A stretch of 64,000 nt of DNA from an uncultured bacterium (GCA_963701025.1 OY969557.1:506042-570041), one strand, 5' to 3'; shown: positions 5,549 to 29,166, counted from the stretch's first letter. A program made the numbers and translations. Notes: a model not told the origin generated them from the letters alone.

Positions 5549-5566
5549 CTCCAAATATGTCAAAAA

Positions 5567-6127: not shown

Positions 6128-6169
6128 GTTTTTTCTTAAATCGTAAATCTCATTTCCTGCATCTTCGGG

Positions 6170-6385: not shown

Positions 6386-6430
6386 AGGAGTGAGTATGAA
6401 AGTATAAAGTATGCGGGTATGAGTGTATGG

Positions 6431-6802
6431 CTACACGATCTCTGCGGCGCGGGAAGCGATGGTCTTGAAGCCTGCTTCCGCCACTTCTCTGGGAATAGGC
6501 CCGAATACGCGCCCGGCTATCGGCTCTTTCTTGTCTTTCTCGATGATGACGACCGCGTTCTCGTCGAAACGTATGTATGAGCCGTCCTTCCGGCGGCTGG
6601 CCTTGGTCTGGCGGACGACGACCGCGTGGAGGACGTCTTTCTTCTTGACTGTCTTTCTCGGCTCGGCCTTCTGTACCGATAGGACCACTACTTCGCCTAG
6701 TTCGGCATAGCGCTTCTTGGAAGCGCCGAGCACCTTGAAGATGCGCCCGACCTTGGCACCGGAATTGTCCGCGATCTTGACTATGGAGCGGGGTTGGATC
6801 AT
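6431..6802 (-). CDS. rplN: 50S ribosomal protein L14
   Basis: MIQPRSIVKIADNSGAK... canonical uL14. Confidence 0.95.
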   Translation of the reverse strand: MIQPRSIVKIADNSGAKVGRIFKVLGASKKRYAELGEVVVLSVQKAEPRKTVKKKDVLHAVVVRQTKASRRKDGSYIRFDENAVVIIEKDKKEPIAGRVFGPIPREVAEAGFKTIASRAAEIV

Positions 6803-6832
6803 GGAGGTTAGGGTAGAGGGTGTAGGGTATAG

Positions 6833-7090
6833 TTAGGCAATCACTTTGAAGGCTTTGTTCTTCGACATCGGCCTGCAGGACTCGATAGTCGCCGTGTCAC
6901 CGATCTTCTTGGTATTGCCGGGATCATGCGCCATGAGCTTGGTCCTCTTGGTCTGGAACTTGTGATACTTTGCATGCTTGACGTAGCGCTCGATGACTAC
7001 TACCGTCGTGTCTTTCATTTTGTCCGACGAAACGACGCCGGTGAATGTCTGGCGTATCGTCTTTTGTTCGGCTGTTTTGGCGGTTGGCAT
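6833..7090 (-). CDS. rpsQ: 30S ribosomal protein S17
   Basis: Conserved uS17 sequence and operon position. Confidence 0.95.
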   Translation of the reverse strand: MPTAKTAEQKTIRQTFTGVVSSDKMKDTTVVVIERYVKHAKYHKFQTKRTKLMAHDPGNTKKIGDTATIESCRPMSKNKAFKVIA

Positions 7091-7151
7091 GTGAGCGCTG
7101 ATACTACTTGAAGTTTGTTGAAATGTCTAGCTAAAGGGAAACGGAAAATTT

Positions 7152-7358
7152 TTATTTTTGATTTTCTATCTTTACATTCATCGCCGTCAATATCCTGGCG
7201 ATGTCTTTCCGTATGGCCCTGCCCTCTTTTACATTCTTGGTCTTGGATCCCGTGGCGCCGAAACGGAATATGCGCAAAGACTCGCGCTTGTCGGCCGCGA
7301 GCTTAGCCAGGTCGGCTGGAGTCTTGCTGGTTATGTCCTTCATCTGTATAGCTTTCGT
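7152..7358 (-). CDS. rpmC: 50S ribosomal protein L29
   Basis: uL29-like 68-aa product starting at the internal Met (MTKAIQMKDITSKTPADL...). The ORF is open to 7400. Confidence 0.85.
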   Translation of the reverse strand, partial: TKAIQMKDITSKTPADLAKLAADKRESLRIFRFGATGSKTKNVKEGRAIRKDIARILTAMNVKIENQK

Positions 7359-7451
7359 CATAGAAAAAAGCTCGGTCGAGCTGTCCCGCCATGCTAACAA
7401 AAACGCGCCGGGGAGTCAAGGCGCGCCTGTGTTACGGGATATTATGCTCTT

Positions 7452-10379
7452 TTAAGCCCGCATCCTTCTCCAGATATAGAATCCGAGGCTGGCGAGAACG
7501 ACCAGGATGACAACGTAGACGTATATAGAATAGTTGACGCCAGCCCCTCCCACGGCGGCTACTTGAGAGGCGCCTGGTGTGCCCGGATTGCCCGTGGCAT
7601 TACCGGAATTCGATCCCGCGGAACCGGTGGAGTTGTTAGATAGCGCCGGGATAAGAGGTGCCCCAACTGGCGGTTGGGTACCTCCCGGAGTCAGGACAAG
7701 GCCGTTCGCGCCATTTCCGGCGGCGGAAATGAAGTTCTGACCGGAGCCAGCAGCAGCCGCGGCCGCATTACCCGCCGCGGCGAGAGCGACGGCAAACGGA
7801 ACGGCAGAAAAACCGCCGAATGACGATCCGCTACTGCCTCCGCCCCCGCTCAATTGCGGAGCGGGCGGATTATTGACAACTACGGTTCTTGTCACCTCCA
7901 CGGCGGGATTGCCGGCGGTATCAGTCGCGTTGTAGGCGACCGCGTATGTGCCGGCAACCGATGTGTTCACTATGTCGCCGCCGACTACAGCCGTAGTAGT
8001 TCCGTCGACGGCGTCGAACGCTGTGGCGCCTTGTTCAGTGTATTTATCGCCGACGGTCAGGCCAATTGACGCATCGCCGTTCAGGGTGATGACGGGAGGA
8101 ATTGTATCGACTACGGTCACGGAGAATGTAGAAGAAGAAATATTATTGCTCGAATCGGTAGCCGTGCATTTCACCGTGGTCGCACCAATGGTAAAGGTCG
8201 AGCCGGAAATCGGCGAACAGGCGGCTGTGGAATCTCCGCTATATGCATCATGTGCGGCCGGCGAATCATATGCTACTACAGCTCCAGAGGACGAAGCTGC
8301 TTCGGCAGTCACATCTTTGTGTGCGTCGATGGCCGGAGGTATGGTATCGACCGCATGAACGACCCTCACTACGGGAATAGCCACGTTCCCATGGCTATCT
8401 GTCACATTATAGATAACCGAATAATCGCCTATGACATTGCCGTCAACGGTGCTGGTCGTGGCAATCTGGCTCGTGAGATCCCCGTCTACACTGTCCGAGG
8501 CCGTGGCACCGGCGTCTACATATGTGGAAGGCGCTTGGATAGTCACGTCTGGGCTGCCGATGAGCGTTATTACCGGGGCTGTCGTGTCTTCGACAGTCAC
8601 TTTGAATGACGTAGGCGATGCATGGTTGCCGCTCGAGTCGACGGCATTGCAATCGACGGTGGTAGTGCCGAATGGAAAGGTCGAGCCGGAAGATGGGACG
8701 CAGACCACTGGTACGGGGCCGTCAACATCGTCCGTCGCCTTAGGAGGGACGTACGAAACGGCCGCTCCGGCGAGCGAGGTCGCCTCCACAGTCATGTCTC
8801 CAGGGCTCCCGCTGATGACCGGGGGAGTATTGTCGTATATGGTCATAGTCCCGGTCGCTTCGCCGGCGTAGTTGGGATCGGTCGAGCTTGCGTCTACTGC
8901 ATAACTGCCGAAAGCAGAGGGAGCAGTCGACGAGCCGTTATAGCTTATGGCCACCGACACACCGCCAGGCGTGGTGGAAGCCGTTACGATCTTCGGCGAG
9001 CCGTCATACGCTTGGCTCAAGCCATTCAAAGAGATGGCGACTGGCGCCGGGCCGATGGAAATGGAGAAGCTTTGGGTGGTGGATGATGTGCCGTTATCAG
9101 CGGTGACGGAAAAATTGGAGACACCGGCCGCGGTCGGAGTGCCGGAAATAGCCTCCGAGCGTCCGTCCGCGGCGGTCGAAAAGGAGAGACCGGCCGGCAA
9201 GGAGCCAGAAGACGTAGTGAAGGTGAATGGTCCGTCCGCCGAAGTAAACAGGTTCACAGACACCGGCCGTGGCAAATGCCCGTTCGAAAAAATCCGCTGA
9301 TACAGTGTGTTGACGGTGCCAGTCACCAAGGAAGACGGTGAGAGGCTGACCGGCATCGGGGCGACCGAGACGACCACGTTAAAGGTGCCGGTGCCCACCG
9401 CACCAAGCGTGCTCGTAGCGGTGCAGATGACTGTAGTCGTACCTGCAGGAAAGATCGAACCGGAAGCCGGATTGCACGCCACGGGGAGTGTGCCGCCGAA
9501 CACATATCCTGTAATGTAGTAGTCCGAATACGAAACACTTGTTCCATAAACCCCGCCGGCGGTAGCAGTAATATCTTGCGTAGGTATACCACCTATAGAA
9601 GGTATAGCTGGCGCGAATATCACAGATATGGTGTGATCGAAATGCTGCGGAGCGGGGAAACCGAGTCCGCTGTATCCGGCTGTACTAGTACCACCTCCAT
9701 TGAGCTGGCCATCAATGTAATCGGTATAGCTGTTGGCGATATAGCCAGGATCAGGTTCGAAGGTGATCGACTCGGAATTCCCAGAAGGAACGGTGAAGGT
9801 GCCGAGGGGCGATATCGTGCCATGTGGGCCGGCCGAGGTATTAAAGGTAACTGCGCCCGCAGAGGCGGCAGGAAAGAATAAAGCGTCGGGAGCCATGTTC
9901 GATATCGTCTTGAGGCTTGGAACAGGCGGTGTGCTCGATGGACCAACTGGGACGGCATCTGACGAACCGGAGGAAGTAGCAGAGGATGTAACACTAGTGT
10001 CGACAATAGTTGTCGTTGAAGTTGTTAATGCTGTAGTAGTCGTTGGTGCTGTAGTAGCGTCCCCGGCGTTAACGACCGCTGTCGATGTCGTTGCAACATA
10101 TCCGACAGGAGCTTGATCTGAAGATTGAACTAGGGAGCCAGCACTATCAGTAGTAACAGGGGTAGGATCAACGGGAGGCGTTGACGACACATCCGCAGGA
10201 GCGGATTGCGTGTCAGTAGAGACTGTTGGAGTGCCAGAAGAATCTGGAGCGGAGTCATCGGCATGCGTCACGAGCATCGGTATGTTGGCATACGAGCCGA
10301 CGAGAGCGATGATGACCACCGCTGAAAGCATTCTTGCGAGGGAAATATGGATATATTTCATAAAAGTCATGAAAAACAA
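7452..10379 (-). CDS. Large cell-surface protein (975 aa) with HYR/Ig-like (DUF5011-like) repeats, Thr/Ser-rich linker, Gly-rich region and C-terminal TM anchor
   Basis: There is an N-terminal signal/TM segment. Repeated PPVI(S/T)L..D.TV motifs resemble HYR/Ig-like domains. The C-terminus is YVYVVILVVLASLGFYIWRRMRA, a TM helix plus basic tail. The gene is inserted between rplP and rpmC. Confidence 0.7.
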   Translation of the reverse strand: MFFMTFMKYIHISLARMLSAVVIIALVGSYANIPMLVTHADDSAPDSSGTPTVSTDTQSAPADVSSTPPVDPTPVTTDSAGSLVQSSDQAPVGYVATTSTAVVNAGDATTAPTTTTALTTSTTTIVDTSVTSSATSSGSSDAVPVGPSSTPPVPSLKTISNMAPDALFFPAASAGAVTFNTSAGPHGTISPLGTFTVPSGNSESITFEPDPGYIANSYTDYIDGQLNGGGTSTAGYSGLGFPAPQHFDHTISVIFAPAIPSIGGIPTQDITATAGGVYGTSVSYSDYYITGYVFGGTLPVACNPASGSIFPAGTTTVICTATSTLGAVGTGTFNVVVSVAPMPVSLSPSSLVTGTVNTLYQRIFSNGHLPRPVSVNLFTSADGPFTFTTSSGSLPAGLSFSTAADGRSEAISGTPTAAGVSNFSVTADNGTSSTTQSFSISIGPAPVAISLNGLSQAYDGSPKIVTASTTPGGVSVAISYNGSSTAPSAFGSYAVDASSTDPNYAGEATGTMTIYDNTPPVISGSPGDMTVEATSLAGAAVSYVPPKATDDVDGPVPVVCVPSSGSTFPFGTTTVDCNAVDSSGNHASPTSFKVTVEDTTAPVITLIGSPDVTIQAPSTYVDAGATASDSVDGDLTSQIATTSTVDGNVIGDYSVIYNVTDSHGNVAIPVVRVVHAVDTIPPAIDAHKDVTAEAASSSGAVVAYDSPAAHDAYSGDSTAACSPISGSTFTIGATTVKCTATDSSNNISSSTFSVTVVDTIPPVITLNGDASIGLTVGDKYTEQGATAFDAVDGTTTAVVGGDIVNTSVAGTYAVAYNATDTAGNPAVEVTRTVVVNNPPAPQLSGGGGSSGSSFGGFSAVPFAVALAAAGNAAAAAAGSGQNFISAAGNGANGLVLTPGGTQPPVGAPLIPALSNNSTGSAGSNSGNATGNPGTPGASQVAAVGGAGVNYSIYVYVVILVVLASLGFYIWRRMRA

Positions 10380-10421
10380 GTCCTCGTATGACTAAAAATA
10401 TGGTTTTGCGGGGACAGGCGA

Positions 10422-10450
10422 ACCCTATCACACCTAGTAGTGCGTGTCAA
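10422..10450 (-). promoter_or_regulatory. Putative sigma70-like promoter for the 975-aa surface protein gene
   Basis: Minus-strand TTGACA, a 17-nt spacer, then TAGGGT, about 45 nt upstream of the ORF start. Confidence 0.3.
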
Positions 10451-10543
10451 GACAGCGTGTATATATATGGGGAGAAGCTGGGGACAGGACGGGGATAGCA
10501 AAAGCCTGCGGCTGGGCTATTTATCAAAAGTCACCAAAAGCGG

Positions 10544-10969
10544 CTACGCTCGGGCTACGATCTTGGTCTTCATGGGGAGCTTGGTGCCGGCCTTGCGAAG
10601 AGCTTCAGCGGCGACAACTGGTTCCACGCCATCGATCTCGAATATGATGCGACCCGGCCTGACTTCGGCGGTGAAGCCGACAGGCTCGCCTTTGCCCTTG
10701 CCCATTTTGACTTCAGCCGGCTTCTGGGTGAAGGGATGATCGGGGAAGACGCGGATCCAGACCTTGCCGGTCTTGCCGGCATTGTGCATGGCGGCTTTGC
10801 GGGCGGATTCGATCTGGTTGGAAGTGACGCGTCCATACTTCATGGCCTTAAGCCCGTACGAACCGAAAGAGACTTCAAGTCCGCGCGTCTCGGTCTTCAC
10901 GGCCTCCTTGGCCGCGTTCTTGCGCTTGGTGAACCATTTCCTATGCTTGACTTTCTTAGGATATAGCAT
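10544..10969 (-). CDS. rplP: 50S ribosomal protein L16
   Basis: Canonical uL16 ([11 protein letters not shown]...). Confidence 0.95.
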
Positions 10970-11032
10970 GTTGGTTAATTGAGGATTGGAATTGTAGATT
11001 GATAATTAATTTTCAATTTCAATTTTCAATTT

Positions 11033-11707
11033 TTAATTCGTTTTTTGATCCTTTTTAAATATCTCCCCTTTATATATCCACACCTTGATGCCTATGTCGC
11101 CATACGTCATATGGGCTTTTTCGCGAGCGAAGTCGATGTCGGCGCGCAGGGTCTGGAGCGGAACCTGGCCTTTCTTGAGCTCTTCGGTGCGAGCGATCTC
11201 GGCCCCGCCCAAGCGGCCGCCGAGACGGACGCGGATGCCCTTGACTTCCTTGTGAGCCATGACTTTCTCTATGGTCTGTTTCAGGACGCGGCGGAACGGC
11301 AGACGCTTTTCCAGAGCTTCGGCGATCATCATGCCGGTGATGGCGGCATTGGACTCCGGGCTCCGCACTTCCTCGACGTCGAGCTTGAGCTCCTTGCCGG
11401 CCAAGTCTATCTTGGCTTTGCGGATAAGAGTGATGATCTTCTCGCGAAGCTTGACGATGCCGTCGCCGGCCTTGCCGATGAGCATGCCGGGGCGCGACGT
11501 CTTGACGATAACGCGAATGCCCTTCTGGGTGCGCTCGATGTCGATGCCGCCGACGTAGAAGGAGCGGAGCTCTTTCTCCAGGAATTCGCGGATGATGATG
11601 TCGGTCTTGAGCGCAGTGCGATAGCTCTGGTCCGTAGCGAACCAGCGGCTCTTCCAGTCGCGGATGATTCCAAGCCTATGGGAATATGGATGTACGGTGT
11701 GGGACAT
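11033..11707 (-). CDS. rpsC: 30S ribosomal protein S3
   Basis: KH and S3-C domains; canonical uS3. Confidence 0.95.
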   Translation of the reverse strand: MSHTVHPYSHRLGIIRDWKSRWFATDQSYRTALKTDIIIREFLEKELRSFYVGGIDIERTQKGIRVIVKTSRPGMLIGKAGDGIVKLREKIITLIRKAKIDLAGKELKLDVEEVRSPESNAAITGMMIAEALEKRLPFRRVLKQTIEKVMAHKEVKGIRVRLGGRLGGAEIARTEELKKGQVPLQTLRADIDFAREKAHMTYGDIGIKVWIYKGEIFKKDQKTN

Positions 11708-11716
11708 GTTAGTAAA

Positions 11717-11745
11717 TGGAAAGTGGAAAGTGGAAAGTGGAAAGT
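11717..11745. repeat. Tandem heptad repeat (GGAAAGT)x4 on the plus strand, (ACTTTCC)x4 on the coding strand, filling the rplV-rpsC spacer
   Basis: Four perfect tandem copies, read directly in the sequence. The spacer is G-free on the mRNA strand. Confidence 0.9.
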
Positions 11746-11751
11746 TTCATA

Positions 11752-12132
11752 TTATTTTCTTGCGGGTTTATTACTATTCGCCACACTCAACTTTCCACCC
11801 TCGACTTTCGTAGCAAGCGTGATTGACACATGGCTGGTGCGTTTCTTGATGGGATGGGCGGAACCGCGGGAAACCGGCATATGGCGCTTGAGGACATAAC
11901 CCTGATCGACGCGGATCTCTTTTATGAAAAGGCTGGCTTTGTCGAGCTTGTGATTGTGGGAAGCGTTGGCCACGGCCGAGTCGATGAGATCGGAGAGCGG
12001 GTGCCGGGCTTTCTTCAACCCTTGAGCCAGGATGTTCTTGGCGTCACTAATGCTCTTGCCGCGGATCATGTTGGCCACGACACGGACTTTGCGGGGGGAG
12101 ATGCGATAATTCTTGAGGGATGCGGTGACCAT
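11752..12132 (-). CDS. rplV: 50S ribosomal protein L22
   Basis: Canonical uL22. Confidence 0.95.
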   Translation of the reverse strand: MVTASLKNYRISPRKVRVVANMIRGKSISDAKNILAQGLKKARHPLSDLIDSAVANASHNHKLDKASLFIKEIRVDQGYVLKRHMPVSRGSAHPIKKRTSHVSITLATKVEGGKLSVANSNKPARK

Positions 12133-12168
12133 GTTAGTGATTGAAAATTGGAATTGAAGATTGAAAGA

Positions 12169-12519
12169 TTATTTCTTGGCGCCGGCGTCGGTGGCGGCGG
12201 CTTTGGCGGCGGACGCGGCGGCGATCTCGGCCTCCTTGGCTTTCATCTCGATCTCCTTCTGCATCTTGCCGCCGTGGCGGACGAACTTCTTTGTGGGCGA
12301 AAATTCACCGAGGCGGTGTCCAACCATGTCCTCGGTGACCAGAACGTCGTTATGGATGCGCCCATTGTGGACGCCGAAGGTGAAGCCCACCATCTCCGGG
12401 GAGATCTGCGAGCGGCGCGCCCAGGTCTTTATGATACCGGCGGATGCCGGCTTTTTTCCCGCGATCTTCTTGAGGAGCCTCTCTTCGACGAAAGGCCCTT
12501 TTTTGAGCGAACGTGCCAT
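12169..12519 (-). CDS. rpsS: 30S ribosomal protein S19 with Ala/Lys-rich C-terminal tail
   Basis: uS19 core ([19 protein letters not shown]...) plus a roughly 25-aa AK-rich extension. Confidence 0.95.
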
Positions 12520-12669
12520 GTTCAATGAAAAATGCTCGAAGCGAGCGTGGAAGCCATAGTATCAGAGCCGGATTGGAGAGTCAAGAGAATGGCTAAGATA
12601 AAGGATGGGTAATAAAAAGCCGGGCCCATTTCTGAACCCAGCAACTGTGCTAAACCTGATTTTCAGCGA

Positions 12670-13122
12670 TTACGGCATGCCACCAAACATGTGTTCGCTC
12701 ACCAGATGAACGCCGCGGCCAACTGCGGCTCCGCGCTCATAATGCTTGGCAATGACGGCCATAAGCCCATAAAAGTAAGCCTTCCTGCCGTCAGTATCGA
12801 GTTGGAATTTGAATGTGGAACCGCACGCCTTGATGACACCACCAATCCGGGCAAAACCGCGAAGATGCTCAATGGGAACATCCAGAAAGACCTCTGCCAA
12901 TGGGTCGCTACGACCAGAACCGACTTTTTCCTTCGGGACGCCGAACATTTCAGCGAGATCATGAGCCGTGGCTGAACCAGGGGGCTTGTCCGACTGATGG
13001 AATTCGGCAAAGATAGACTTCGCGCCAAGAGATGTGACAGAGAAACTCAATTTCCGGAACGCGTCCATCACCGCGACCGTGAGCAGACCAAGGTTAGGGC
13101 CACTGTATACGACAGTCTTCAC
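12670..13122 (-). CDS. Hypothetical protein (150 aa), no confident family assignment
   Basis: Clean ORF co-oriented with the ribosomal protein operon, lying between rplB and rpsS. Its GC is similar to the host. Confidence 0.4.
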   Translation of the reverse strand: MKTVVYSGPNLGLLTVAVMDAFRKLSFSVTSLGAKSIFAEFHQSDKPPGSATAHDLAEMFGVPKEKVGSGRSDPLAEVFLDVPIEHLRGFARIGGVIKACGSTFKFQLDTDGRKAYFYGLMAVIAKHYERGAAVGRGVHLVSEHMFGGMP

Positions 13123-13181
13123 ATCCGATGGCCGCGTGGGATGTTATCCGAACGGATTTAAGCCGTTATTATAACTAATCC

Positions 13182-13736
13182 TTATTTAGCTACTGACCAT
13201 TTTTTTACCGTATTACCAAGCCATTTGAGTTGGCTGATGCGAAGTCGATTCAGTATTGGTAATAGATAAGATATCAAACCAGAGAAATCTTCAGACGGAC
13301 CACAAACCTCTTGTTCAATAATAAATGCAACATCTGCATCGAGCGGATCTATTTTTATACCGTAAAGTTTTTCCATTGATGAGTGCTGGTTGTCAATTTC
13401 TTGCGTCTTTTTTTCATGAAATGCGAACGCTAGTACAAAAAACTTCTTGGCTTCATCTGGCAAAGAATGCATAAGCTTTTCCTGAATTTTTTCTCCAAAA
13501 ATAGATAAATAACCGCCTTCAGGAGCGAGACACAAATAGAAAAGGTGCGCTCCAATTAGGCAGTTTATAAACTTCGATTTTATCTCATCATTACTCAAAA
13601 TACCGGTCCAGTCTGGTAAATCTTCCTTTTTCAATTCGGCCACCAATTTCGTAGAATTAATAGCCGACCACGACGGAAATTCGTTAAGAATAATTTCGGA
13701 GTCCTTATCTGTTTTTGATTTGGAAAACCATCCCAT
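13182..13736 (-). CDS. Hypothetical protein (184 aa), low-GC ORFan
   Basis: AT-rich compared with its surroundings. No recognisable motifs. Confidence 0.4.
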   Translation of the reverse strand: MGWFSKSKTDKDSEIILNEFPSWSAINSTKLVAELKKEDLPDWTGILSNDEIKSKFINCLIGAHLFYLCLAPEGGYLSIFGEKIQEKLMHSLPDEAKKFFVLAFAFHEKKTQEIDNQHSSMEKLYGIKIDPLDADVAFIIEQEVCGPSEDFSGLISYLLPILNRLRISQLKWLGNTVKKWSVAK

Positions 13737-13753
13737 AATGAATAGATTCTAGC

Positions 13754-13996
13754 TCATAATTGGCTGTATTCGCCGACCGCGCCTACAGCTCTTTCGGAAA
13801 GTGATGCGCAAGCCGCTTGGTAGATAATAGACAGTATATCAGAACAGATCATCTCCAGATAATCCTTATTGAAAGTCGAGGGTGTGATCGAGCTTCCAAT
13901 ATTCTTGCCTTGGTCCCACAACTCAAATCGTGACTGGCCGTCTTGTACTGGTTCCTCGTACATTCTCAACATTTCTTTTATCTCTGAAGACTTCAT
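13754..13996 (-). CDS. Hypothetical small protein (80 aa), low-GC ORFan
   Basis: AT-rich and tightly spaced upstream of the 184-aa gene. Confidence 0.3.
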   Translation of the reverse strand: MKSSEIKEMLRMYEEPVQDGQSRFELWDQGKNIGSSITPSTFNKDYLEMICSDILSIIYQAACASLSERAVGAVGEYSQL

Positions 13997-14058
13997 CAGA
14001 AAAATCTATCATACTGATATAAAAAAGTCACCAGCTCCTTTAAGCTCAATATCCCCCA

Positions 14059-14067
14059 TGCTATAAT
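14059..14067 (+). promoter_or_regulatory. Extended -10 element (TGCTATAAT) upstream of the histidine kinase gene
   Basis: TGnTATAAT lies about 25 nt upstream of the ATG at 14090. Confidence 0.4.
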
Positions 14068-14089
14068 TCCCCCACCAGTCTCTTTCTCC

Positions 14090-14908
14090 ATGACATCAGC
14101 ATATCTCATCAGCGTCTTTAGTCTCATGCAAAACAGCCCATATTCGATAGTGGCTACAGCCCTCGTCACAGCTCTCATCGCCGCCCTCATCATCCACATC
14201 CTCTGGCGGAAGCTCCGGGAGGACGAGAGATCGAAATACGAATTCATCACCATCATGGCCCACAAGTTCCGCACGCCGCTCACCCATATCAAATGGGTCT
14301 CCGAGGAGTTATCCGGCAACACCCAGGAAACGTCGACGCGCGAAGGCCTGAAAGAGATCCAGAAAGCCGACAAGAACCTGGTCGGCCTCACAACGACATT
14401 GATCGAGCTAACGGATTCTGATACGGACCACGCCTTGTATTCATTCGAAGCCACCGATCTGTGCGATTTCGTCAAGACGATCGGCGAGACGGCGAGGCGG
14501 ACCTTCCAGGAGAAGAACATCTTCTTCTCGGTCGCCTGCGACAGCGGCCCGGTATTCGCCAAGATAGACAGACCGCGCATGGAATTCGCCGTTCAAGTGC
14601 TCATGGACAATGCCTTCGCCTACACGCCGACGGGCAAGAAGGTGGAGATTTCGGTCGGCGGCTCCGGACACAATGCAGTCATATCGGTCAAGGACGGGGG
14701 CATCGGCATTCGGGAATCTGACGTGAAAAAGATATTCGGCAAATTCTTCCGGGCGGACAATGCCAGAGCCGCGGATACCGAGGGATTCGGCATCGGGCTC
14801 TATCTCGCCCGGTCAGTGGTCAAAAAACACAAAGGAAAGATCACGGCCTTCTCGGAGGGAGAAGGCCGCGGTTCGGTATTCAATATAATACTGCCCCGGT
14901 CGCGATAG
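14090..14908 (+). CDS. Orphan mini sensor histidine kinase (single TM, HisKA + HATPase_c, no sensor domain)
   Basis: H-box MAHKFRTPL. N, G1 and G2 boxes are present (DGGIGI, GFGIGLYL). One N-terminal TM helix. No response regulator lies nearby. Confidence 0.85.
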   Translation: MTSAYLISVFSLMQNSPYSIVATALVTALIAALIIHILWRKLREDERSKYEFITIMAHKFRTPLTHIKWVSEELSGNTQETSTREGLKEIQKADKNLVGLTTTLIELTDSDTDHALYSFEATDLCDFVKTIGETARRTFQEKNIFFSVACDSGPVFAKIDRPRMEFAVQVLMDNAFAYTPTGKKVEISVGGSGHNAVISVKDGGIGIRESDVKKIFGKFFRADNARAADTEGFGIGLYLARSVVKKHKGKITAFSEGEGRGSVFNIILPRSR

Positions 14909-14934
14909 ACGATAGGCGTGAGGTGCGCCGACAA

Positions 14935-15786
14935 CTAGAGCTTGGTCTTCTTCTTGCCGACTTGACGTCTGGAAACAATGAAGACGTTGGAATACTTCTT
15001 GGGCGTGCGGGTCTTCTGGCCCTTGCCGGCGGGCTTGCCCCAGCGGGTCTTGAGGCGGCGCAGACCGCGGCCGGTCCTCTGCTCGCCGCCGCCGTACGGG
15101 TGGTCGACGGGGTTCTGGGCCGAGCCGCGGACAGTCGGGCGTATGCCCATCCAACGGGTGCGTCCCGCTTTGCCGATATTGACCAGGCGATTCTCTTCGT
15201 TGGAGACGGCGCCTATGGTGGCCCAAGCGTCTTCATGGACCTTGCGGACTTCTGAAGACGGCATCTTGATGTGGGTGTAGCTCGCGTCATTGGCGACCAC
15301 CTGGCCGAACGATCCGGCCGAGCGGACAAGCTTGGCTCCGGAACCAGGTTTGATCTCGATGTTGAAGACGAAGGTGCCTACCGGGATCTTTTTGAGCGGC
15401 AAACGGTTGCCGGTCTCGATGGGAGCTGATTCGGACACCATGAATGAATTGCCTACTTTCATCGTTTTTGGCAGGAGGACATAGCGCTTTTCGCCGTCTT
15501 TGTAAGCGACGAGGCCGATATAGCCGGTGCGGAAAGGATCGTACTCGACGGTCTTGACCGTGGCGCGTATGCCTTTCTTGTCATAATTGAAATCGATCTT
15601 GCGATAAAGCTTGGCATGACCTCCGCCCTTGTGGCGGACGGTGATGCGGCCGAAGGAATTGCGTCCCATGTCGCGCTTCCAGCCATGGGTCAGAGGCTTG
15701 TACGGTTCCGACGCGGTCAAGTACTGCTTGAACGGCAGTACCGTCATATGGCGGCGAGATTTAGTTGTGGGGCGGAAGCTTTTCAT
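14935..15786 (-). CDS. rplB: 50S ribosomal protein L2
   Basis: Canonical uL2. Confidence 0.95.
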   Translation of the reverse strand: MKSFRPTTKSRRHMTVLPFKQYLTASEPYKPLTHGWKRDMGRNSFGRITVRHKGGGHAKLYRKIDFNYDKKGIRATVKTVEYDPFRTGYIGLVAYKDGEKRYVLLPKTMKVGNSFMVSESAPIETGNRLPLKKIPVGTFVFNIEIKPGSGAKLVRSAGSFGQVVANDASYTHIKMPSSEVRKVHEDAWATIGAVSNEENRLVNIGKAGRTRWMGIRPTVRGSAQNPVDHPYGGGEQRTGRGLRRLKTRWGKPAGKGQKTRTPKKYSNVFIVSRRQVGKKKTKL

Positions 15787-15834
15787 GTGATTATTGCTCT
15801 ATTTGTAGCATTAGGATAAATTCGTTGATTCGGA

Positions 15835-16344
15835 TTATACAAAATCGATCTTCTCGCCTTTCTTGACGGTCACGACCGCCTTGCGGAAACCGGCCACCCG
15901 GCCTTTCCGTCCGCGGAGGAAGACCATCTTGGCAGGAGCGTTCAGAACCGCGATCTTGACCGGAGTAACCTTGTACAAGGCTTTCACCGCCTTGCCTATA
16001 GACTGTTTGTTAGCTTCTCTCGTCACCTCGAAGGTATAGACCCCGCTCTGGCTTAAAAGGCCGGACTTTTCGGTGATGCGTGGACGGATGATAGCATCAG
16101 TCGCGCTCGAGAAAGAACCCGATGGCATAGCCATTGAAGCCTTGGCCGCGGCGGCGTCTTTGGTCACGACCGCGCGGGAGATCTTTTCCGGCTTTTCAGA
16201 TCCGAACTTCCTCGTATTCCTTGTGCCGGCGGCATTCGCCGAGGAGCGCGCCCGATCGGGAGCGGCGTTCTTGGCCAGCTCCGCGGTAGCTTGGATGTGG
16301 CTCTGCTCGTGCTTCTTGTCTTTTCTGAATCCGAAGAGTGGCAT
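15835..16344 (-). CDS. rplW: 50S ribosomal protein L23 with a roughly 75-aa Lys/Ala-rich N-terminal extension
   Basis: The uL23 core sits in the C-terminal ~95 aa. The extended start leaves only 47 nt to rplD, whereas the internal Met would leave 258 nt. Confidence 0.8.
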   Translation of the reverse strand: MPLFGFRKDKKHEQSHIQATAELAKNAAPDRARSSANAAGTRNTRKFGSEKPEKISRAVVTKDAAAAKASMAMPSGSFSSATDAIIRPRITEKSGLLSQSGVYTFEVTREANKQSIGKAVKALYKVTPVKIAVLNAPAKMVFLRGRKGRVAGFRKAVVTVKKGEKIDFV

Positions 16345-16391
16345 GGTAGTGAATGAAAATTTCTAATTGACCTAATTATCTAATTTCTAAA

Positions 16392-17063
16392 TTATGCTTC
16401 TTTGGCCATCTTGACGGTAAGGGCTTTCAACGACTCTTCCGGATTGGCCACGATGAGATACGTATGGTTCAGAACCGAAACGGGATTGATGTTGCGGAAT
16501 TCCTCCACCGAGACGTTGCCGAAATTGCGGAAGCTCTTCTCGACGGCGGATGACTTGGCGTCCATGGCTATGATGGCGGCATTGGTCGTCTTTGTGGCGA
16601 GCCTCTCATAGCCTTTTATCTTGGAAAGAGACGAGAGCATGGCCTTGGCGTCTTTGGCCTTGGGCGCGGACATATTGACCGCGTCGAGGAAAAGGATCTC
16701 GCCATCCTTCCATTTGCGGGAGAGGATGGTATAGAAAGCCTTGGTCTTGGCCTTCTTGTTGATCTTGCGCGAATAATTCTGGTCATTGCGCGGACCGTGA
16801 GCGACGCCGCCGCCGACCCAGAGTGGCGAACGGGTCGAACCGTGGCGGGCGCGGCCAGTGCCTTTTTGTTTCCACGGCTTCTTGCCGCCGCCGCGGACTT
16901 CGCCGCGGGTCTTGGTATGGGCGATGTTCATGCGCGAATTGGAATTCATCAGACGGACCACCTCGTGGACCAGGTCGGCGTTCCAGGGCAGGCCGAAGAC
17001 GCCTTCCGGGAGCTTGATTTTACCCGTCGATTTCCCTGTCTGATTATAGACTGTTGCTTCCAT
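16392..17063 (-). CDS. rplD: 50S ribosomal protein L4
   Basis: Canonical uL4. Confidence 0.95.
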   Translation of the reverse strand: MEATVYNQTGKSTGKIKLPEGVFGLPWNADLVHEVVRLMNSNSRMNIAHTKTRGEVRGGGKKPWKQKGTGRARHGSTRSPLWVGGGVAHGPRNDQNYSRKINKKAKTKAFYTILSRKWKDGEILFLDAVNMSAPKAKDAKAMLSSLSKIKGYERLATKTTNAAIIAMDAKSSAVEKSFRNFGNVSVEEFRNINPVSVLNHTYLIVANPEESLKALTVKMAKEA

Positions 17064-17153
17064 GAAAGAAAAAAGCTCTTGCGAGTCGTGCCGAGCATAG
17101 TAGCAGAGCCGTGAAGGAGAGTCAACAGCTAGGTGAAAGGCGCTGGCAGAAAT

Positions 17154-17215
17154 CTTGAGCGTTTCTTTATCAAATCTTAGGCGTTTTTTGATTACTTTTT
17201 GAGCGTTTCTTTATC
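17154..17215 (+). promoter_or_regulatory. Two direct repeats TTGAGCGTTTCTTTATC (17154-17171 and 17198-17215) upstream of the toxin gene; putative promoter/operator
   Basis: Direct repeats 44 nt apart. The second repeat lies 22 nt before the ATG. The same 17-mer recurs upstream of both comEC halves. Confidence 0.5.
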
Positions 17216-17236
17216 TCGATTTGATATGGTTAGAGG

Positions 17237-17545
17237 ATGAAAGTCATGCCGACAGAAGAAGTAGATGCCTTCATAGAGACCTGTGAGAAAAGGGTCCGTG
17301 CCAAAATCAGCAGACGTTTTCTAATGCTTGAAAAGTTTGGTCCTATGATCCGTATGCCTTATAGCAGATATATTCTCCCTGGAGTTTTTGAGCTTCGTAC
17401 AACAGGAAAAGACAACGTGCGGCTAGTTTATGCATTTATAAACGATAAGGCGGTCGTGTTCTATGCGTTTATAAAAAAGACCGAGGAGATAAGCGCCCAC
17501 GAGATAGGCTTAATAAAACAAAAGCTTAAGAACTTGCATTTATGA
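17237..17545 (+). CDS. Type II toxin, Gp49/RelE-like (HigB-like, DUF891 family)
   Basis: About 100 aa, toxin-first order, overlapping an XRE-HTH partner by ATGA. Confidence 0.6.
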   Translation: MKVMPTEEVDAFIETCEKRVRAKISRRFLMLEKFGPMIRMPYSRYILPGVFELRTTGKDNVRLVYAFINDKAVVFYAFIKKTEEISAHEIGLIKQKLKNLHL

Positions 17546-17847
17546 CTTATACGGCATATACTACCTTTATGAAAACAGTAAATTGGAGAGAGAGGCATGA
17601 GAAAGACATGGAAGACCCTGAATACAGAAGGGAGTGGGATGCTCTTGGGCTCGAATTCGATATTATCCACGCCATCATCCGCAAACGCATCAAGGACGAC
17701 ATGACCCAAGCCCAGTTGGCCAAAAAGATGCGCACCGGCCAGGCGACTATTTCGCGTTTGGAGTCTGGAACCTACAATCCTTCAGTGAAATTCCTTCGCA
17801 GACTGGCCAAGGCGTTAGACGCGGAGCTCACGATCAGGTTGGTGTGA
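17542..17847 (+). CDS. XRE-family HTH antitoxin (HigA-like)
   Basis: HTH motif (MTQAQLAKKMRTGQATISRLESG) and a 4-nt overlap with the upstream toxin. Confidence 0.7.
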   Translation: MTYTAYTTFMKTVNWRERHEKDMEDPEYRREWDALGLEFDIIHAIIRKRIKDDMTQAQLAKKMRTGQATISRLESGTYNPSVKFLRRLAKALDAELTIRLV

Positions 17848-17858
17848 TCTAAAATTAT

Positions 17859-18482
17859 TTAACCTACAATCTCCACCAGCGTTCCTCTCCTTCCCGGTAT
17901 CGCTCCGGCAACATACAGGATGTTCTCTTCCGGGTCAACGTGAGCGACCTTCAAGTTCTTGACGGTTATGCGATCAGAGCCCATGCGTCCGGCCATGCGC
18001 ATACCAGTCGGCACGCGGTTGCGCAGGCCGCCGCCGATCGAGCCCGGTTCGCGCTCGCTGTGCTTTTGGCCGTGGGAGCGCGGGCCTCCGTGGAAGCCGT
18101 GACGCTTGACCACGCCTTGGAAGCCCTTGCCTTTGGACACTGCTGAAACGACGACCACATCGCCTGCTTTGAACTGTGAAAGCTCTATCTTGTCGCCGAC
18201 CTTAAAAGAAGGAGTTGGGAGTAAGGAGGAAGGAGAAAGACGGAATTCCGACAGGGCGGCAAAGCTTCCAAGGTCTTTCCATTGGCCCTTTTGCGCCTTG
18301 TTGACGCGAACAGGATTGCGCGAACCTTCACCCACCTGGACAGCTTCATAGCCGTCGGCTTCCTTGGTCCTGACTTGGGTGACGATATTCCCGCGGGCGG
18401 CAACGAGCGTAACCGGAATAGCCGCTCCGGAGGCGTCGTAGATCTGGGTCATGTTCAATTTTCTTCCGAGGATGAATTTCAT
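17859..18482 (-). CDS. rplC: 50S ribosomal protein L3
   Basis: Canonical uL3. Confidence 0.95.
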   Translation of the reverse strand: MKFILGRKLNMTQIYDASGAAIPVTLVAARGNIVTQVRTKEADGYEAVQVGEGSRNPVRVNKAQKGQWKDLGSFAALSEFRLSPSSLLPTPSFKVGDKIELSQFKAGDVVVVSAVSKGKGFQGVVKRHGFHGGPRSHGQKHSEREPGSIGGGLRNRVPTGMRMAGRMGSDRITVKNLKVAHVDPEENILYVAGAIPGRRGTLVEIVG

Positions 18483-18494
18483 TGGAATATGTAA

Positions 18495-18529
18495 TGCGAA
18501 TCTACAAATAGTATCCGAATGCCACGAAT
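18495..18529 (-). promoter_or_regulatory. 35-nt promoter-like element upstream of rplC; near-identical copy upstream of rpsL
   Basis: 33 of 35 positions are identical to 30832-30866. On the coding strand it reads cATTCGGAtactatttgtagattcgCATTAC, i.e. a -35-like box, a 17-nt spacer, a -10-like box, then about 11 nt to the ATG. Confidence 0.5.
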
Positions 18530-18568
18530 TCGTAGCATTAGTGCGTATTCGCAGATTCGGATTATGCT

Positions 18569-18988
18569 CTACATCATCTTGACGTCGATGTTCACTCCCG
18601 ATGGCAAGCTCAAGTTCGTGAGAGCTTCGATGACTTTCGGGTTCGGGTTGATGATATCGATGAGCCGCTTGTGTACTCGCATCTCGAACTGCTCGCGGGC
18701 GTTCTTGTCGATGAAAGACGAACGGTTGACGGTGTATTTCTTGATCTCCGTTGGCAATGGCACCGGACCGAGGATTTCGACGTCATAACGCGACGCGGTA
18801 TCCATGATCTGGCGCAGGCTGGCATCCAGGATCTTGTGCTCGTAGGCACGAACGCGGATGCGCAAGTGAGGCAGGGCGCCTTCAGGCTTGGCCTTCTTGG
18901 CCCGGGGTGCTTTCAGCGCCGAAGCCTTCGAGGCGACTGCCGGCTTTGAATGGACCTCCTTCTTGGTTGTGGTCTTGGCTGTAGGCAT
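18569..18988 (-). CDS. rpsJ: 30S ribosomal protein S10 with a roughly 40-aa Lys/Ala-rich N-terminal extension
   Basis: The uS10 core begins at LRIRVRAYEHK. It is preceded by an AK-rich tail. Confidence 0.9.
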   Translation of the reverse strand: MPTAKTTTKKEVHSKPAVASKASALKAPRAKKAKPEGALPHLRIRVRAYEHKILDASLRQIMDTASRYDVEILGPVPLPTEIKKYTVNRSSFIDKNAREQFEMRVHKRLIDIINPNPKVIEALTNLSLPSGVNIDVKMM

Positions 18989-19068
18989 GATATGTAATCC
19001 TAATCTACGAATCTCATCCGAATGCCGCGAATATTCGTTGTATTCGTGCGATTATTCGTAGATTCGCA

Positions 19069-20256
19069 TTAAGCAATGATCTTGGTGACCACTCCGGCAC
19101 CGACGGTCTTGCCTCCTTCACGGACGGCGAAACGCATCTTTTCCTCGAGGGCGACGGGCGCGACGAGCTTGACCTTGAAAGTGACGGTGTCGCCCGGCAT
19201 GACCATCTCGACCTTCTCGGCGAGGGTCACTTCTCCGGTGACGTCGGTGGTGCGGATATAGAACTGGGGCTTGTAGCCGGTGAAGAACGGGGTGTGGCGG
19301 CCTCCCTCTTCCTTCTTCAAGACGTAGACTTCAGACTCAAATTCGGTGTGAGGCTTGACGGAACCGGGCTTGGCCAATACCTGGCCGCGGGATACATCGT
19401 CCTTGGCGGTGCCGCGCAGAAGCACGCCGGCGTTGTCGCCCGCCATGCCTTCCTTCAGGGACTTGTTGAACATCTCGATGCCGGTCATGACGGTCTTGGT
19501 GGTGTCGCGGAAGCCGACGATCTCGACTTCCTCGCCGACCTTGACCTTTCCGCGCTCGATGCGGCCGGTCACGACCGTGCCGCGGCCTTCGATGGAGAAG
19601 ATGTCCTCGATCGGCATGAGGAACGGCTTGTCAGTCTCGCGAACGGGCTCGGGGATATAAGTGTCGAGGGCGGCCATGAGCTCGTCGATCTTGGCTGTCC
19701 ATTCGGCCTTGCCTTCGAGGGCGCCGGTGGCCGAACCGCGGATGACCGGGACATTCTTGCCGTCGAACTGGTTCTTGGTCAGGAGCTCGCGCACTTCCTC
19801 TTCGACCAGGTCGATGAGGTCTTTTTCCGGTACGATGTCGCACTTGTTGAGGAATACCACGATCTTCGGCACGCCAACCTGGCGGGCCAGAAGGACGTGC
19901 TCGCGGGTCTGCGGCATGACGCCGTCAGTGGCGGAAACGACCAAGATGGCCCCGTCCATCTGGGCGGCGCCGGTGATCATGTTCTTGATGAAGTCGGCGT
20001 GTCCCGGACAGTCGATGTGGGCGTAGTGGCGGGTCGGAGTCTCGTACTCGACGTGCGAGAGCGATATGGTAACGGTCTTGGTGGCATCGCGGACGGTGCC
20101 TCCTTTGGTGATGTCCGCGTAGGCCTTGACGTTGGCCAGGCCTTTCTTGGCCTGGACGGCCAAGATAGCGGCGGTCAAAGTCGACTTGCCGTGGTCGATG
20201 TGACCGATGGTGCCGACGTTGACGTGCGGCTTGGTGCGATTGAATTCTGCTGCCAT
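19069..20256 (-). CDS. tuf: Elongation factor Tu
   Basis: [16 protein letters not shown] and NKCD motifs. Full length, 395 aa. Confidence 0.98.
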
Positions 20257-20447
20257 AGTATTTGCTTAGTGCTTTGGCTTGTGGCGCGTGGTCCGCAGGT
20301 AAGCGGGCGAAGCGTCAAGAGCCAAAGATAATGTTGTTAATAGTTAATAAAGCGCCGGGTAGGCGTATGGGGAAGAGCATAGCATATGCCCCAAAAACGC
20401 GCAAATCTTCTGAGTACACCCGCTTTAGTTGACTAAAGCGCCTTATA

Positions 20448-21902
20448 TTATTGGACGATATTGAACACTCCATCGCTCGAATCGCAATTACTTGTGCCTG
20501 ATTGACAGATCTGGACGCTATATTGGCCGTCGGGAACGGTACCGACGTCACCGGTTCCACCATTACCATTTATATTACTGTATTGGCCCACATCCCAACT
20601 ATATGAATCCTGGTTGATTGCTATGCCTGTAGCTATCGTATATGGCGCGAGCATATACATCGGACACATCGAACCGGCCGGGCACGGTGCTTGATACGGC
20701 ACGAGCTTCAAGTCAGCCGTCGTTGCGGCGAAATAATACGGCGATGTCCAGACGATATTCTGCGTCGTTCCACGCGCCCACGCTTCTCCGCCGTTGGGAG
20801 AGATTATTCTCAAAGGACTAACCGCCGTTGAACCGGTGACATTGACCGTCGAGGTCGTTTGAGCTTGCAGACCCGCATTATCCCTGACAGTGAAAGTGAT
20901 CATGTATGTGCCTGGGTTCGAATAGACGTGAGTGAAGGAAGTACTCTGGATGAAAGCCATCGCCATAGCAGGAGTGGCGCAGGTCGCCGGATAGTTGCAA
21001 TTCGGCGAATCTCCCCAATTCACGGAATAACTCAATACCCCATTGGCCGGATCGCTGGCGTGAATAGTCCATGTGCCCGTCTGATTGACAGAGAGCGACG
21101 TCGGCGCATCTATGCCGCTAATGACCGGCGTTTGACCATTCGTTACCCCATTCGTAGTGATCGTGAAATAATTATCGCTGTCATCGCACTGCGAACCATT
21201 CGTGAGACAAATCTGGATCTTGTATTGGCCAGAGGCTATTGGCGTCATTTGATCAGGACAAGATGTCGCGAACGCATCACATGGTATTGCCAAAGGTACT
21301 GAATTTCCAACATTCCAGGCATACGAATCAGAACCAAGGTTGACCCCGCTCGCAATAGTCAGAGGCGCACGCACCGCGATCATGCATCTGATCGGCTGAC
21401 CGGGCTCCGCACAGGCCGGCACAGGAAATTCAAGTCTGATGTCTCCCGTCTGATTGAGCGCGCCCGGCGTGCCGGTCCACGTGATGTACTGCGTCGTTCC
21501 GGTTTGCCACGTCTCGCCGCCATTTGGCGAAATGACTCGGAGAAAATCGGTCGGATTGTTATCGTTGTTACCGCCGCCGTTCAATATCTGGCGGGTCAAG
21601 GGCCCAAAGAAGCCGAAGGCCGGAAGACTGACGGATGTCTGATATCTGATGAGAGCGGCTTTGGTCTGCGAGCCGAAGTAGCCTTTTGCGGCACTGCCGG
21701 AACTGATGGCCGGTATGTCATAGCCGTTCGAGATGAGCCACGTCTGGAGATTGACCACATCCTGCCCGGAACTGCCGACGGTTAAGTTGTTCGAGAATGT
21801 GTAGTCTTGGGCATAGACGCTCGATTTGGCGCCGGCGACAAGGGCGATAGCGATAATGGCAATGGCAACGGCAATGGCGGTAAAAATGAGATATTTTTTC
21901 AT
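20448..21902 (-). CDS. Secreted surface protein with N-terminal PG_binding_1-like domain, repeated beta-sandwich modules (ISPNGGE.W..GTTQ.I.W) and a PKD-like domain
   Basis: Probable start MKKYLIFTAIAVAIAIIAIALVAG (signal/TM); the ORF is open to 22007. PG-binding pattern LTVGSSGQDVVNLQTWLISNGY...FGPLTRQIL. PKD-like segment YSVNWGDSP. Confidence 0.7.
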   Translation of the reverse strand: MKKYLIFTAIAVAIAIIAIALVAGAKSSVYAQDYTFSNNLTVGSSGQDVVNLQTWLISNGYDIPAISSGSAAKGYFGSQTKAALIRYQTSVSLPAFGFFGPLTRQILNGGGNNDNNPTDFLRVISPNGGETWQTGTTQYITWTGTPGALNQTGDIRLEFPVPACAEPGQPIRCMIAVRAPLTIASGVNLGSDSYAWNVGNSVPLAIPCDAFATSCPDQMTPIASGQYKIQICLTNGSQCDDSDNYFTITTNGVTNGQTPVISGIDAPTSLSVNQTGTWTIHASDPANGVLSYSVNWGDSPNCNYPATCATPAMAMAFIQSTSFTHVYSNPGTYMITFTVRDNAGLQAQTTSTVNVTGSTAVSPLRIISPNGGEAWARGTTQNIVWTSPYYFAATTADLKLVPYQAPCPAGSMCPMYMLAPYTIATGIAINQDSYSWDVGQYSNINGNGGTGDVGTVPDGQYSVQICQSGTSNCDSSDGVFNIVQ

Positions 21903-29161: not shown

Positions 29162-29166
29162 GGAAT

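Follow-up and report, generated by a model that had tools for sequence, protein, structure and literature searches.

The window analysed here is a 64-kb stretch (OY969557.1:506042-570041) of a metagenome-assembled genome (MAG) from the Patescibacteria (Paceibacteria, 'Ca. Taylorbacteria'-like), and the subject is the gap between rplB and rpsS, the genes of ribosomal proteins L2 and S19, inside its ribosomal gene cluster. The two genes are separated by 2,409 bp (12526-14934), which hold three minus-strand open reading frames (ORFs) of 80, 184 and 150 amino acids (below: o80, o184 and o150) and one plus-strand ORF encoding a histidine kinase (Table 1). The spacing of ~2.4 kb, the three co-oriented small ORFs and the kinase on the opposite strand had all been described in an earlier sequence-only reading of this DNA, and they stand as described. 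A Logan contig from run ERR11718638 matches the window from 15051 to 12312 with 100% identity over 2,740 nt and spans every junction of the gap. This contig was assembled separately; the check is not fully independent if the same run also fed the MAG.

Table 1. Features of the rplB-rpsS gap, its control elements and the other interruptions of the ribosomal cluster (window coordinates).
Feature	Position	Strand	Description
rplB (L2)	14935..15786	-	Pfam Ribosomal_L2_N 6e-30, L2_C 3e-48; 79-95% identity to rplB of 80 relatives; final gene of the upstream transcription unit rplD-rplW-rplB
rpsS (S19)	12169..12525	-	Pfam Ribosomal_S19 7.8e-32; leads the downstream unit rpsS-rplV-rpsC-rplP
Histidine kinase, 272 aa	14090..14908	+	HisKA, HATPase_c
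o80, 80 aa	13754..13996	-	Apparent 5' remnant of a class I S-adenosylmethionine (SAM)-methyltransferase gene
o184, 184 aa	13182..13736	-	Intact orphan gene
o150, 150 aa	12670..13122	-	Apparent 3' remnant of a DapB-like reductase gene, with the DapB_C-type domain
Kinase extended -10, TGcTATAAT	14059..14067	+	Direct sequence reading; ~22 nt 5' of the kinase ATG
Terminator-like hairpin after rplB	14842..14870	-	12 bp, then a U-rich stretch; 65 nt past the rplB stop, inside the 3' end of the kinase gene
Terminator-like hairpin after o150	12619..12642	-	Intrinsic-terminator-like, 10 bp then UUUUUAUUA; closes the o80-o184-o150 stretch; -21.4 kcal/mol, z = -2.1
rpsS promoter (predicted)	12556..12584	-	TTGACT, 17-nt spacer with TGa at its end, TACTAT (consensus scan)
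rpsS leader element	12534..12546	-	GCTCG-CUU-CGAGC, then a U-run; 3' of the promoter and ahead of the rpsS start
Promoter-leader module, rplD copy	17052-17125	-	Directly after a non-ribosomal interruption
Promoter-leader module, rpsS copy	12511-12584	-	Directly after a non-ribosomal interruption
Promoter-leader module, rpmC copy	7346-7419	-	Directly after a non-ribosomal interruption
Interruption rpsG/fusA	28880-29373	-	Overlapping 68-aa and 93-aa ORFs, toxin-antitoxin-like; the 93-aa product RelE/ParE-like by reading only
Interruption fusA/tuf	20448-26340	-	Two large PG_binding_1/PKD proteins, 519 and 1,438 aa
Interruption rplC/rplD	17237-17847	+	Gp49/HigB-like toxin gene (102 aa) and HTH_3 antitoxin-like gene (101 aa)
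Interruption rplP/rpmC	7452-10379	-	975-aa surface protein: Bact_surface_Ig-like, MBG_3, HYR, C-terminal transmembrane segment
Interruption after rplE	3736-5504	-	Extracytoplasmic function (ECF) sigma factor (208 aa) and DUF5667 protein (381 aa), replacing the rest of the spc operon
fusA (elongation factor G) pieces	27704-28732, 27382-27879/26922-27827, 26564-27178	-	At least three overlapping frames

The G+C content (GC) falls to 37-43% across 13100-14100. The sequence-only reading had contrasted AT-rich first two ORFs with a background of 55-58%: the trough is real, while the mean GC of the window is 51.3% and values of 58-60% are reached by ribosomal genes only. The 61 long ORFs of the window have a mean GC of 52.9% (standard deviation 5.7), and the lowest value among them belongs to o184 (36.9%, with 34% at third codon positions). 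The parts of the gap contrast sharply in this respect (37% versus 54-55%), and o150 (53.9%) is host-like.

The kinase begins with an N-terminus of ~19 residues and one transmembrane (TM) segment (residues ~20-38), followed directly by the DHp/HisKA and HATPase_c domains (HisKA PF00512, 2.6e-6, 27.8 bits at a cut-off of 26.9; HATPase_c PF02518, 1e-21). Nothing lies between the TM segment and the H-box, so that there is no sensor domain. The gene is antisense to rplB and convergent with it. The residues of the H, N, G1, F and G2 boxes are at least 90% conserved across 30 orthologues of identical layout, as is the H-box motif 'EFITI-AHKFRTPLT', and the ATPase motifs DNAFAYTP, DxGIGI, FxKFFR and GFGIGL are kept across orthologues. 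The best NCBIfam matches (PnpS, WalK, PhoR) fall far under their cut-offs, e.g. 141 bits versus 400. No receiver domain was found in the 64 kb by phmmer with CheY, PhoB and the response regulator of a relative as queries (E<=1), and a receiver protein is present in just two of the related gaps (L049 and L051). The description of a single-TM, sensor-less kinase with an extended -10 element of its own and no regulator nearby is thereby confirmed. It is very probably a working kinase with its regulator encoded elsewhere.

The locus was compared with 80 species-level loci collected with an rplB probe from Patescibacteria MAGs (Paceibacteria, Parcubacteria, 'Ca. Taylorbacteria'; rplB identities in Table 1). 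The loci were grouped by tblastn mapping of the cluster genes and by a neighbour-joining tree of rplD, rplW and rplB, which, with three proteins, serves as a rough guide. The near-adjacency of rplB and rpsS from which the sequence-only reading had started is seen in the outgroup, where the gap measures 14-165 nt in 16 of the 17 loci. The 63 ingroup loci are different: 33 of the 38 closed gaps are at least 800 nt long (800-5,000 nt), and in 21 further loci no rpsS appears in the at least 800 nt of sequence available 3' of rplB. By this comparison the adjacency has been broken in the ingroup for a long time, and the junction behaves as a site of gene turnover.

Of the 176 gap ORFs over all loci, 78 are singletons and the others form 17 small clusters. 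They include HlyD/ABC/FtsX transporters, an aminotransferase, an ornithine (Orn)/diaminopimelate (DAP) decarboxylase, a DEAD-box helicase, a reverse transcriptase, a double-receiver regulator, a pilin-like protein, a cupin and a methyltransferase. In the sister genome L009 (rplB 95% identical) the gap consists of the kinase gene, a 306-aa ORF, a 224-aa SAM methyltransferase and a 115-aa cupin; the latter two genes have 37% GC versus ~50% for rplB and the kinase gene of the same genome. The 306-aa ORF (L009 7952-8872) is without a match in Pfam and NCBIfam and separates the kinase gene from the methyltransferase gene in the sister genome only; the corresponding interval of the window is 42 nt long. 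The reverse transcriptase (RVT_1) ORF of L084 (8528-9595) and its 123-aa relative in L025 (9133-9504) may belong to a group II intron or a retron, and they are among the few clearly mobile genes of the hotspot.

An antisense orthologue of the kinase is found in the same gap in 33 of the 63 ingroup loci, with 42-68% identity and host-like composition; the kinase counts are lower bounds, since many loci end before rpsS. The orientation is antisense in every locus with a gap kinase (33/33), and the smallest kinase-bearing gaps (~1,040-1,100 nt) contain the kinase gene and nothing else. The 52 nt around its -10 element are 81% identical in L009. The kinase distances follow those of the ribosomal proteins (Mantel r = 0.48; none of 999 permutations as high). 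In the relatives it also stands antisense at this position and is host-like in composition; the kinase is therefore a lineage-wide resident rather than part of a recent insertion. It looks like an old, vertically inherited occupant of the rplB-rpsS junction, lost in some sub-clades and standing outside any recent insertion. o184, on the other hand, is present at this position in none of the relatives, so that the lineage-wide pattern applies to one part of the supposed cassette and fails for another.

The rpsS promoter module was found in 54 of the 56 loci where rpsS is visible, including outgroup loci with gaps of only 67-165 nt, and the same regular expression gave 0-1 matches at six other intra-cluster junctions. 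The pattern GCTC-N3-6-GAGC followed by a T-run is nearly invariant in 37 aligned sequences (34 ingroup rpsS leaders, that of L083, and the rplD and rpmC leaders of the window). Covariation in the hairpin is weak, the few changes being mostly G-U-compatible; because the 4-bp core of the leader is invariant, covariation does not separate an RNA hairpin from a DNA palindrome. In a cmscan against Rfam of positions 5000-21000 (E<=1) only tfoR was matched, at chance level (23.7 bits versus a gathering score of 70). The real start of rpsS is probably the ATG at 12519. In several outgroup genomes (L076, L079, L081, L082, L086 and L088) the -10 hexamer TAGTAT lies only ~7-11 nt before the rpsS ATG, which suggests a leaderless or near-leaderless rpsS mRNA there.

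The whole module (TTGACT-N14-TGn-TAnnAT and, ~10 nt further on, GCTC-N3-6-GAGC with a T-run) occurs in three copies in the window (Table 1). Among loci with a large rplC/rplD gap the promoter precedes rplD in all seven (six relatives and the window) and the hairpin pattern in six, the copy of the window being degenerate (ACTCGCAAGAGC). As to its nature, a leader hairpin, an attenuator or an operator may come into question. Promoter-like matches before rplD in relatives with a tiny gap were discarded as false positives, since they correspond to conserved rplC coding sequence (the 'VDP...YV' motif). Two hairpins complete the picture. The region 14826-14934 on the minus strand, just past rplB, folds with -36.3 kcal/mol (z = -2.5, 12-bp stem), and the second hairpin lies after o150. 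Both would act as terminators, and the consensus matches before rpsS and the kinase gene as promoters. rpsS-rplP would then be transcribed independently throughout the lineage. Insertions between rplB and rpsS are expected to be non-polar and tolerated because rpsS has its own predicted promoter and there would be no downstream reliance on read-through. Interruptions elsewhere in the cluster presumably persist only with such a restart module downstream.

The first of the small ORFs, o80, is best read as a 5' gene stump, i.e. a fragment rather than a member of the methyltransferase family. Its residues 1-58 share 79% identity with the N-terminus of the 224-aa L009 protein, which matches Methyltransf_11/23/25 from residue ~64 on (Methyltransf_11 from residue 67). 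The DNA homology to L009 (window 14013..13826) ends at ~13824-13828, ahead of the GxGxG SAM motif; motif I of the L009 enzyme ('ILSIGCGNA') falls past this breakpoint and is missing from o80. After codon 58 the frame continues through 22 unrelated codons to a stop. Among the relatives o80 is matched in L009 only, there as part of the longer gene. It is most likely a non-functional pseudogene.

At the other end of the stretch, o150 appears to be the 3' stump of a divergent DapB-like reductase gene with the DapB_C domain retained. It was tblastn against the related loci, together with a family profile, that gave the link to DapB; searches with the single sequence returned o150 alone (word-index search) or no match (Pfam, NCBIfam). 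o150 aligns with 32-41% identity to residues ~94-235 of proteins of 247-288 aa from L015, L043 and other metagenomes (P0008-P0010). Those of L015 and L043, its only relatives among the gap loci, are encoded in the same rplB-rpsS gap. The N-terminal NAD(P)-binding third (~95-100 aa) is missing, and the 59 nt 5' of o150 abut the stop of o184. The family profile matches the 4-hydroxy-tetrahydrodipicolinate (HTPA) reductases of the Protein Data Bank (PDB) with E-values from 6.7e-7 to 8e-6 (7t34 6.7e-7, 5ua0 2e-6, and 5u5i), P0010 matches DapB_C PF05173 at 3e-5 (24.4 bits, below the gathering threshold of 27), and the family reaches TIGR00036 at E = 0.23 only. In a Foldseek search of the PDB with the o150 model, which is of low confidence (predicted local distance difference test, pLDDT, 58), DapB accounts for nearly all of the top ~40 matches. 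The resemblance is thus to plant/cyanobacterial-type HTPA reductases, by profile for the full-length relatives and by fold for the o150 model; o150 differs from DapB/HTPA reductases in lacking the N-terminal dinucleotide-binding domain, and its family is very divergent. A topoisomerase match obtained with a three-sequence profile was dropped as spurious. o150 is presumably non-functional.

In L015 and L043 the DapB-like gene adjoins an aminotransferase and a decarboxylase, i.e. a metabolic setting. An aminotransferase and an Orn/DAP decarboxylase occur in the gap of eight relatives (L015, L043, L028, L029, L032, L034, L066 and L074); in two of them (L015 7013-10712 and L043 6936-10578) the reductase joins them to make up a lysine/DAP-type gene set.

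o184, in the middle, was matched in none of the 80 related loci. Its family has six members in a collection of 5.8 billion sequences and 16 representatives among 1.84 billion clusters. Elsewhere in the Patescibacteria its members stand in unrelated surroundings, for the most part accessory, variable or mobile regions. The predicted structure is a soluble all-alpha bundle of nine helices (pLDDT 81) with no significant structural match, and no profile match was found in the libraries searched, Pfam and NCBIfam included. Neither PADLOC nor PHROG gave a match at E<=0.1 for o80, o150 or o184, or for the three to six further members of the o184 family searched, depending on the library. Five stretches of the giant protein P0021 (2,382 aa) match positions 14-62 of the family profile of o184, which belong to its N-terminal part. 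Genes of 172 and 212 aa located 3' of o184 homologues were considered as counterparts of o150 and ruled out, being unrelated to it. From its composition and distribution o184 looks like the only intact foreign-looking gene of the gap, recently acquired.

The statement that the three small proteins are all without a recognisable motif has therefore to be withdrawn for o80 and o150, whose homology is to ordinary enzymes, and it holds for o184. The suggestion of foreign origin fits one ORF, o184, with the lowest GC and a rare family.

Taken together, the gap is most probably a patch of gene turnover, made up of an inherited kinase, two gene stumps and one acquired orphan, at a lineage-wide transcription restart; we put the probability of this reading at about three in four. 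It is carried by the genes identified and the truncations among them, by the phylogenetic distribution, by the conservation of the rpsS promoter and by the composition, from which the order of events is reconstructed. The ancestral state of the ingroup would have been rplB, the antisense minimal kinase and then the rpsS promoter. Many descendants would have inherited the kinase while the content around it turned over quickly. The lineage of this genome and L009 would have gained the low-GC methyltransferase and cupin genes. In the simplest history, a replacement or deletion in this genome then brought o184 in and took out the cupin gene together with the 3' part of the methyltransferase gene and the 5' part of the reductase gene. 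The patch left behind would consist of the o80 stump, ~70 nt of filler, o184 and o150 as the 3' two-thirds of the reductase gene. The terminator-like hairpins after rplB and o150 would bracket it, with rpsS restarting from its own promoter.

Several observations weigh against this interpretation. o150 retains the His and Lys of the 'E-x-H-x-x-x-K' region of DapB, and its divergence is not clearly above that of the fast-evolving kinase, so a stand-alone function of o150 is possible. The homologues of o150 in L015 and L043 lie on the rplB side of the kinase and not on the rpsS side, and they may not be positional orthologues. The link between o184 and mobile elements comes from its neighbours in a few metagenomic contigs, and no recombinase, repeat or target duplication marks its arrival. 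Promoters and terminators were called from consensus matches and folds only. Finally, fusA is broken across three frames in the window, and indel errors in the assembly are possible. As to the repeat, the 11-nt direct repeat TAATCCTTATT (13176-13186 and 13860-13870) was considered as a target-site duplication and rejected: it misses the homology breakpoints, one copy belongs to the native methyltransferase sequence, 34 nt within the block of homology, and ~0.3 such pairs are expected by chance (an estimate).

The way in which o184 arrived may be specified further. It could be the last gene of a prophage or integrative element that was integrated between the methyltransferase and DapB-like genes and then mostly deleted, the deletion taking parts of both flanking genes. 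This sub-hypothesis is compatible with the turnover reading, and we regard it as possible but doubtful. The homologue P0004 is an immediate neighbour of a large serine recombinase (Resolvase and Recombinase domains), and a terminase and a DNA methylase are encoded a few genes off; P0006 is preceded by an ORF that resembles an amidase and by a small membrane protein (both recognised by sequence reading, with no domain match); P0013 is adjacent to two toxin-antitoxin pairs (PIN/RHH and RES/Xre). The lowest GC of the window and the truncated genes on both sides of o184 would also agree with it. Against it, other family members occupy ordinary chromosomal contexts (one after an rpoC/RelA_SpoT-domain gene, another beside TspO), neither a recombinase nor an att-like repeat, a tRNA or any further phage gene is left in the gap, and the searches of PHROG and BFVD and the phage tblastn returned nothing for o184 and its relatives.

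A functional tie between the kinase and the ribosomal genes may also be considered. In its strongest form, the promoter-leader module would be a true portable regulatory element (e.g. an attenuator or a site of autogenous control) that lets the super-operon split, and the kinase would be functionally tied to ribosomal-gene transcription; we consider this conjunction unlikely. That the kinase has been kept in place by coupling to ribosomal-protein transcription, either through the hairpin that it shares with rplB in convergent transcription or by an unlinked response regulator acting on the promoter-leader modules, appears to us very unlikely. The constant antisense orientation speaks for such coupling, as do the proximity of the gap kinase to rplB (within 300 nt in 20 loci) or to rpsS (within 300 nt in 13), the position of the rplB terminator-like hairpin inside the 3' coding end of the kinase gene and the unusual conservation of the surroundings of the promoter and of the GCTC-N4-GAGC element. 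However, about half of the ingroup loci have lost the kinase and kept the rpsS promoter, in many loci unrelated genes amounting to several kb lie between the kinase and rplB or rpsS, the module is also found in outgroup genomes that have no gap kinase, and no response regulator is linked to it.

The sequence-only reading had proposed one functional accessory module, be it selfish, anti-phage or regulating ribosome biogenesis, inserted as a unit. The genes are indeed adjacent within a highly expressed cluster, the three small ORFs are co-oriented and share one terminator-like hairpin at their end, and the kinase weakly matches PADLOC PDC-M43B (partial matches, best 4.8e-12). This match, however, covers only that part of the ATPase domain which is common to all such kinases, and the parts of the gap travel separately: the kinase occurs in the 33 related loci without the small ORFs, the three small ORFs co-occur nowhere else, and no kinase, methyltransferase or DapB neighbours surround the o184 homologues elsewhere. 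Two of the three ORFs come from truncated enzyme genes, and GC differs sharply from part to part; no recombinase domain was found among the gap ORFs by the Pfam scan, no tRNA in the 64-kb window and no target-site duplication. Four genes with four histories are difficult to reconcile with a single cassette, which the distribution data already largely refute, and we consider the module highly improbable. An assembly chimera or binning artefact, suggested by the metagenomic source, the abrupt drop in GC and the split fusA, is scarcely credible given the identity of the second assembly from rplB through all four ORFs into rpsS and the flanks of o184, which are locus-specific remnants with counterparts in L009 and in relatives of the clade.

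Within the HisKA class the gap kinase is nothing out of the ordinary. Among the two-component sensor kinases of the HisKA/HATPase_c class, the closest are the intramembrane-sensing ones of the BceS/LiaS type, which do without an extracytoplasmic sensor domain. The gap kinase is similar to them in its HisKA and HATPase_c domains, in the intact H, N, G1, F and G2 boxes and in the negligible extracellular part; it is unlike them in having one TM helix instead of two and no adjacent OmpR-type regulator. The pairing typical of the Bce type is echoed in four relatives with a transporter and a kinase in the gap (L023, L031, L066, L068), which is a weak hint; the window itself has no HlyD/ABC/FtsX homologue, and a Bce-like arrangement of kinase, transporter and regulator is not present there. 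We know of no described kinase family that is characteristically located within the cluster of ribosomal genes.

The trio of HlyD, ABC ATPase and MacB/FtsX genes occurs in the gap of these four relatives and also of L010, L013 and L084. It adjoins the antisense kinase wherever the whole gap is visible, and a Bce-like partnership of transporter and kinase may be reflected in this.

Hotspots of gene gain and loss (integration or 'flexible' hotspots) lie between conserved core genes. The gap resembles them in that rplB and rpsS flank variable content across dozens of species, with genes of atypical GC, gene remnants and occasional mobile genes such as the reverse transcriptase. It differs from a classical hotspot by its position within a usually highly conserved operon, by the long-lived resident kinase and by the lack of a tRNA, integrase or repeat signature. 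As for mobile elements and genomic islands, neither integrase nor att repeats nor tRNA were found, and the composition is atypical for o184 only.

In comparison with the S10 operon as given in Table 2 of PMC1924603, the window keeps the order of eleven ribosomal genes. It is unlike that operon in its division into three or more units, each with a leading promoter (rplD-rplB, rpsS-rplP and rpmC-rplE), in the non-ribosomal genes at rplC/rplD, rplB/rpsS and rplP/rpmC, and in the lack of an Rfam leader match. A full-text literature search returned no description of an interrupted S10 operon or of an operon-embedded kinase in the candidate phyla radiation (CPR)/Patescibacteria. What is unusual here is the location in the S10 cluster together with the long persistence of the break and of the antisense kinase across dozens of species.

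The rplB/rpsS break is not singular: the ribosomal cluster is interrupted at least five times in the window (Table 1). The toxin-antitoxin-like insertion between rplC and rplD, with a HigB-like toxin gene of 40.8% GC, is recent, since the pair has no homologue in any of the 80 related loci. The gene of the 975-aa surface protein has a promoter-like site of its own at 10450 on the minus strand, and the only other large rplP/rpmC gap is that of L021. tuf has its own promoter-like site as well (TTGCGC-N14-TGc-TATGCT, ~20403-20375). After rplE no rpsN, rpsH or rplF follows, and the DUF5667 protein encoded there is a possible anti-sigma factor. The split of fusA reflects either assembly indels or a fusA pseudogene.

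Several ribosomal proteins of the cluster carry low-complexity Ala/Lys-rich extensions: ~80 N-terminal residues in L23 (rplW, 15835-16344), ~40 residues in S10 (rpsJ, 18569-18988), provided that its start is called correctly, and a C-terminal tail in S19.

What had been read as a mystery cassette in the S10 operon is corrected by these data to an inherited kinase, two gene stumps and one orphan. For annotation it follows that short ORFs labelled 'hypothetical' often turn out to be fragments of genes when they lie in such gaps. Two small leads emerge, namely the conserved promoter-leader module and the o184 family with its 16 members. In a sizeable clade of Patescibacteria the ribosomal cluster departs from the synteny that is widely used in binning and phylogeny, and this bears on the layout of ribosomal-gene transcription in streamlined genomes. 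The locus illustrates ordinary genome plasticity and adds a small comparative-genomics point on the operon structure of the Paceibacteria.

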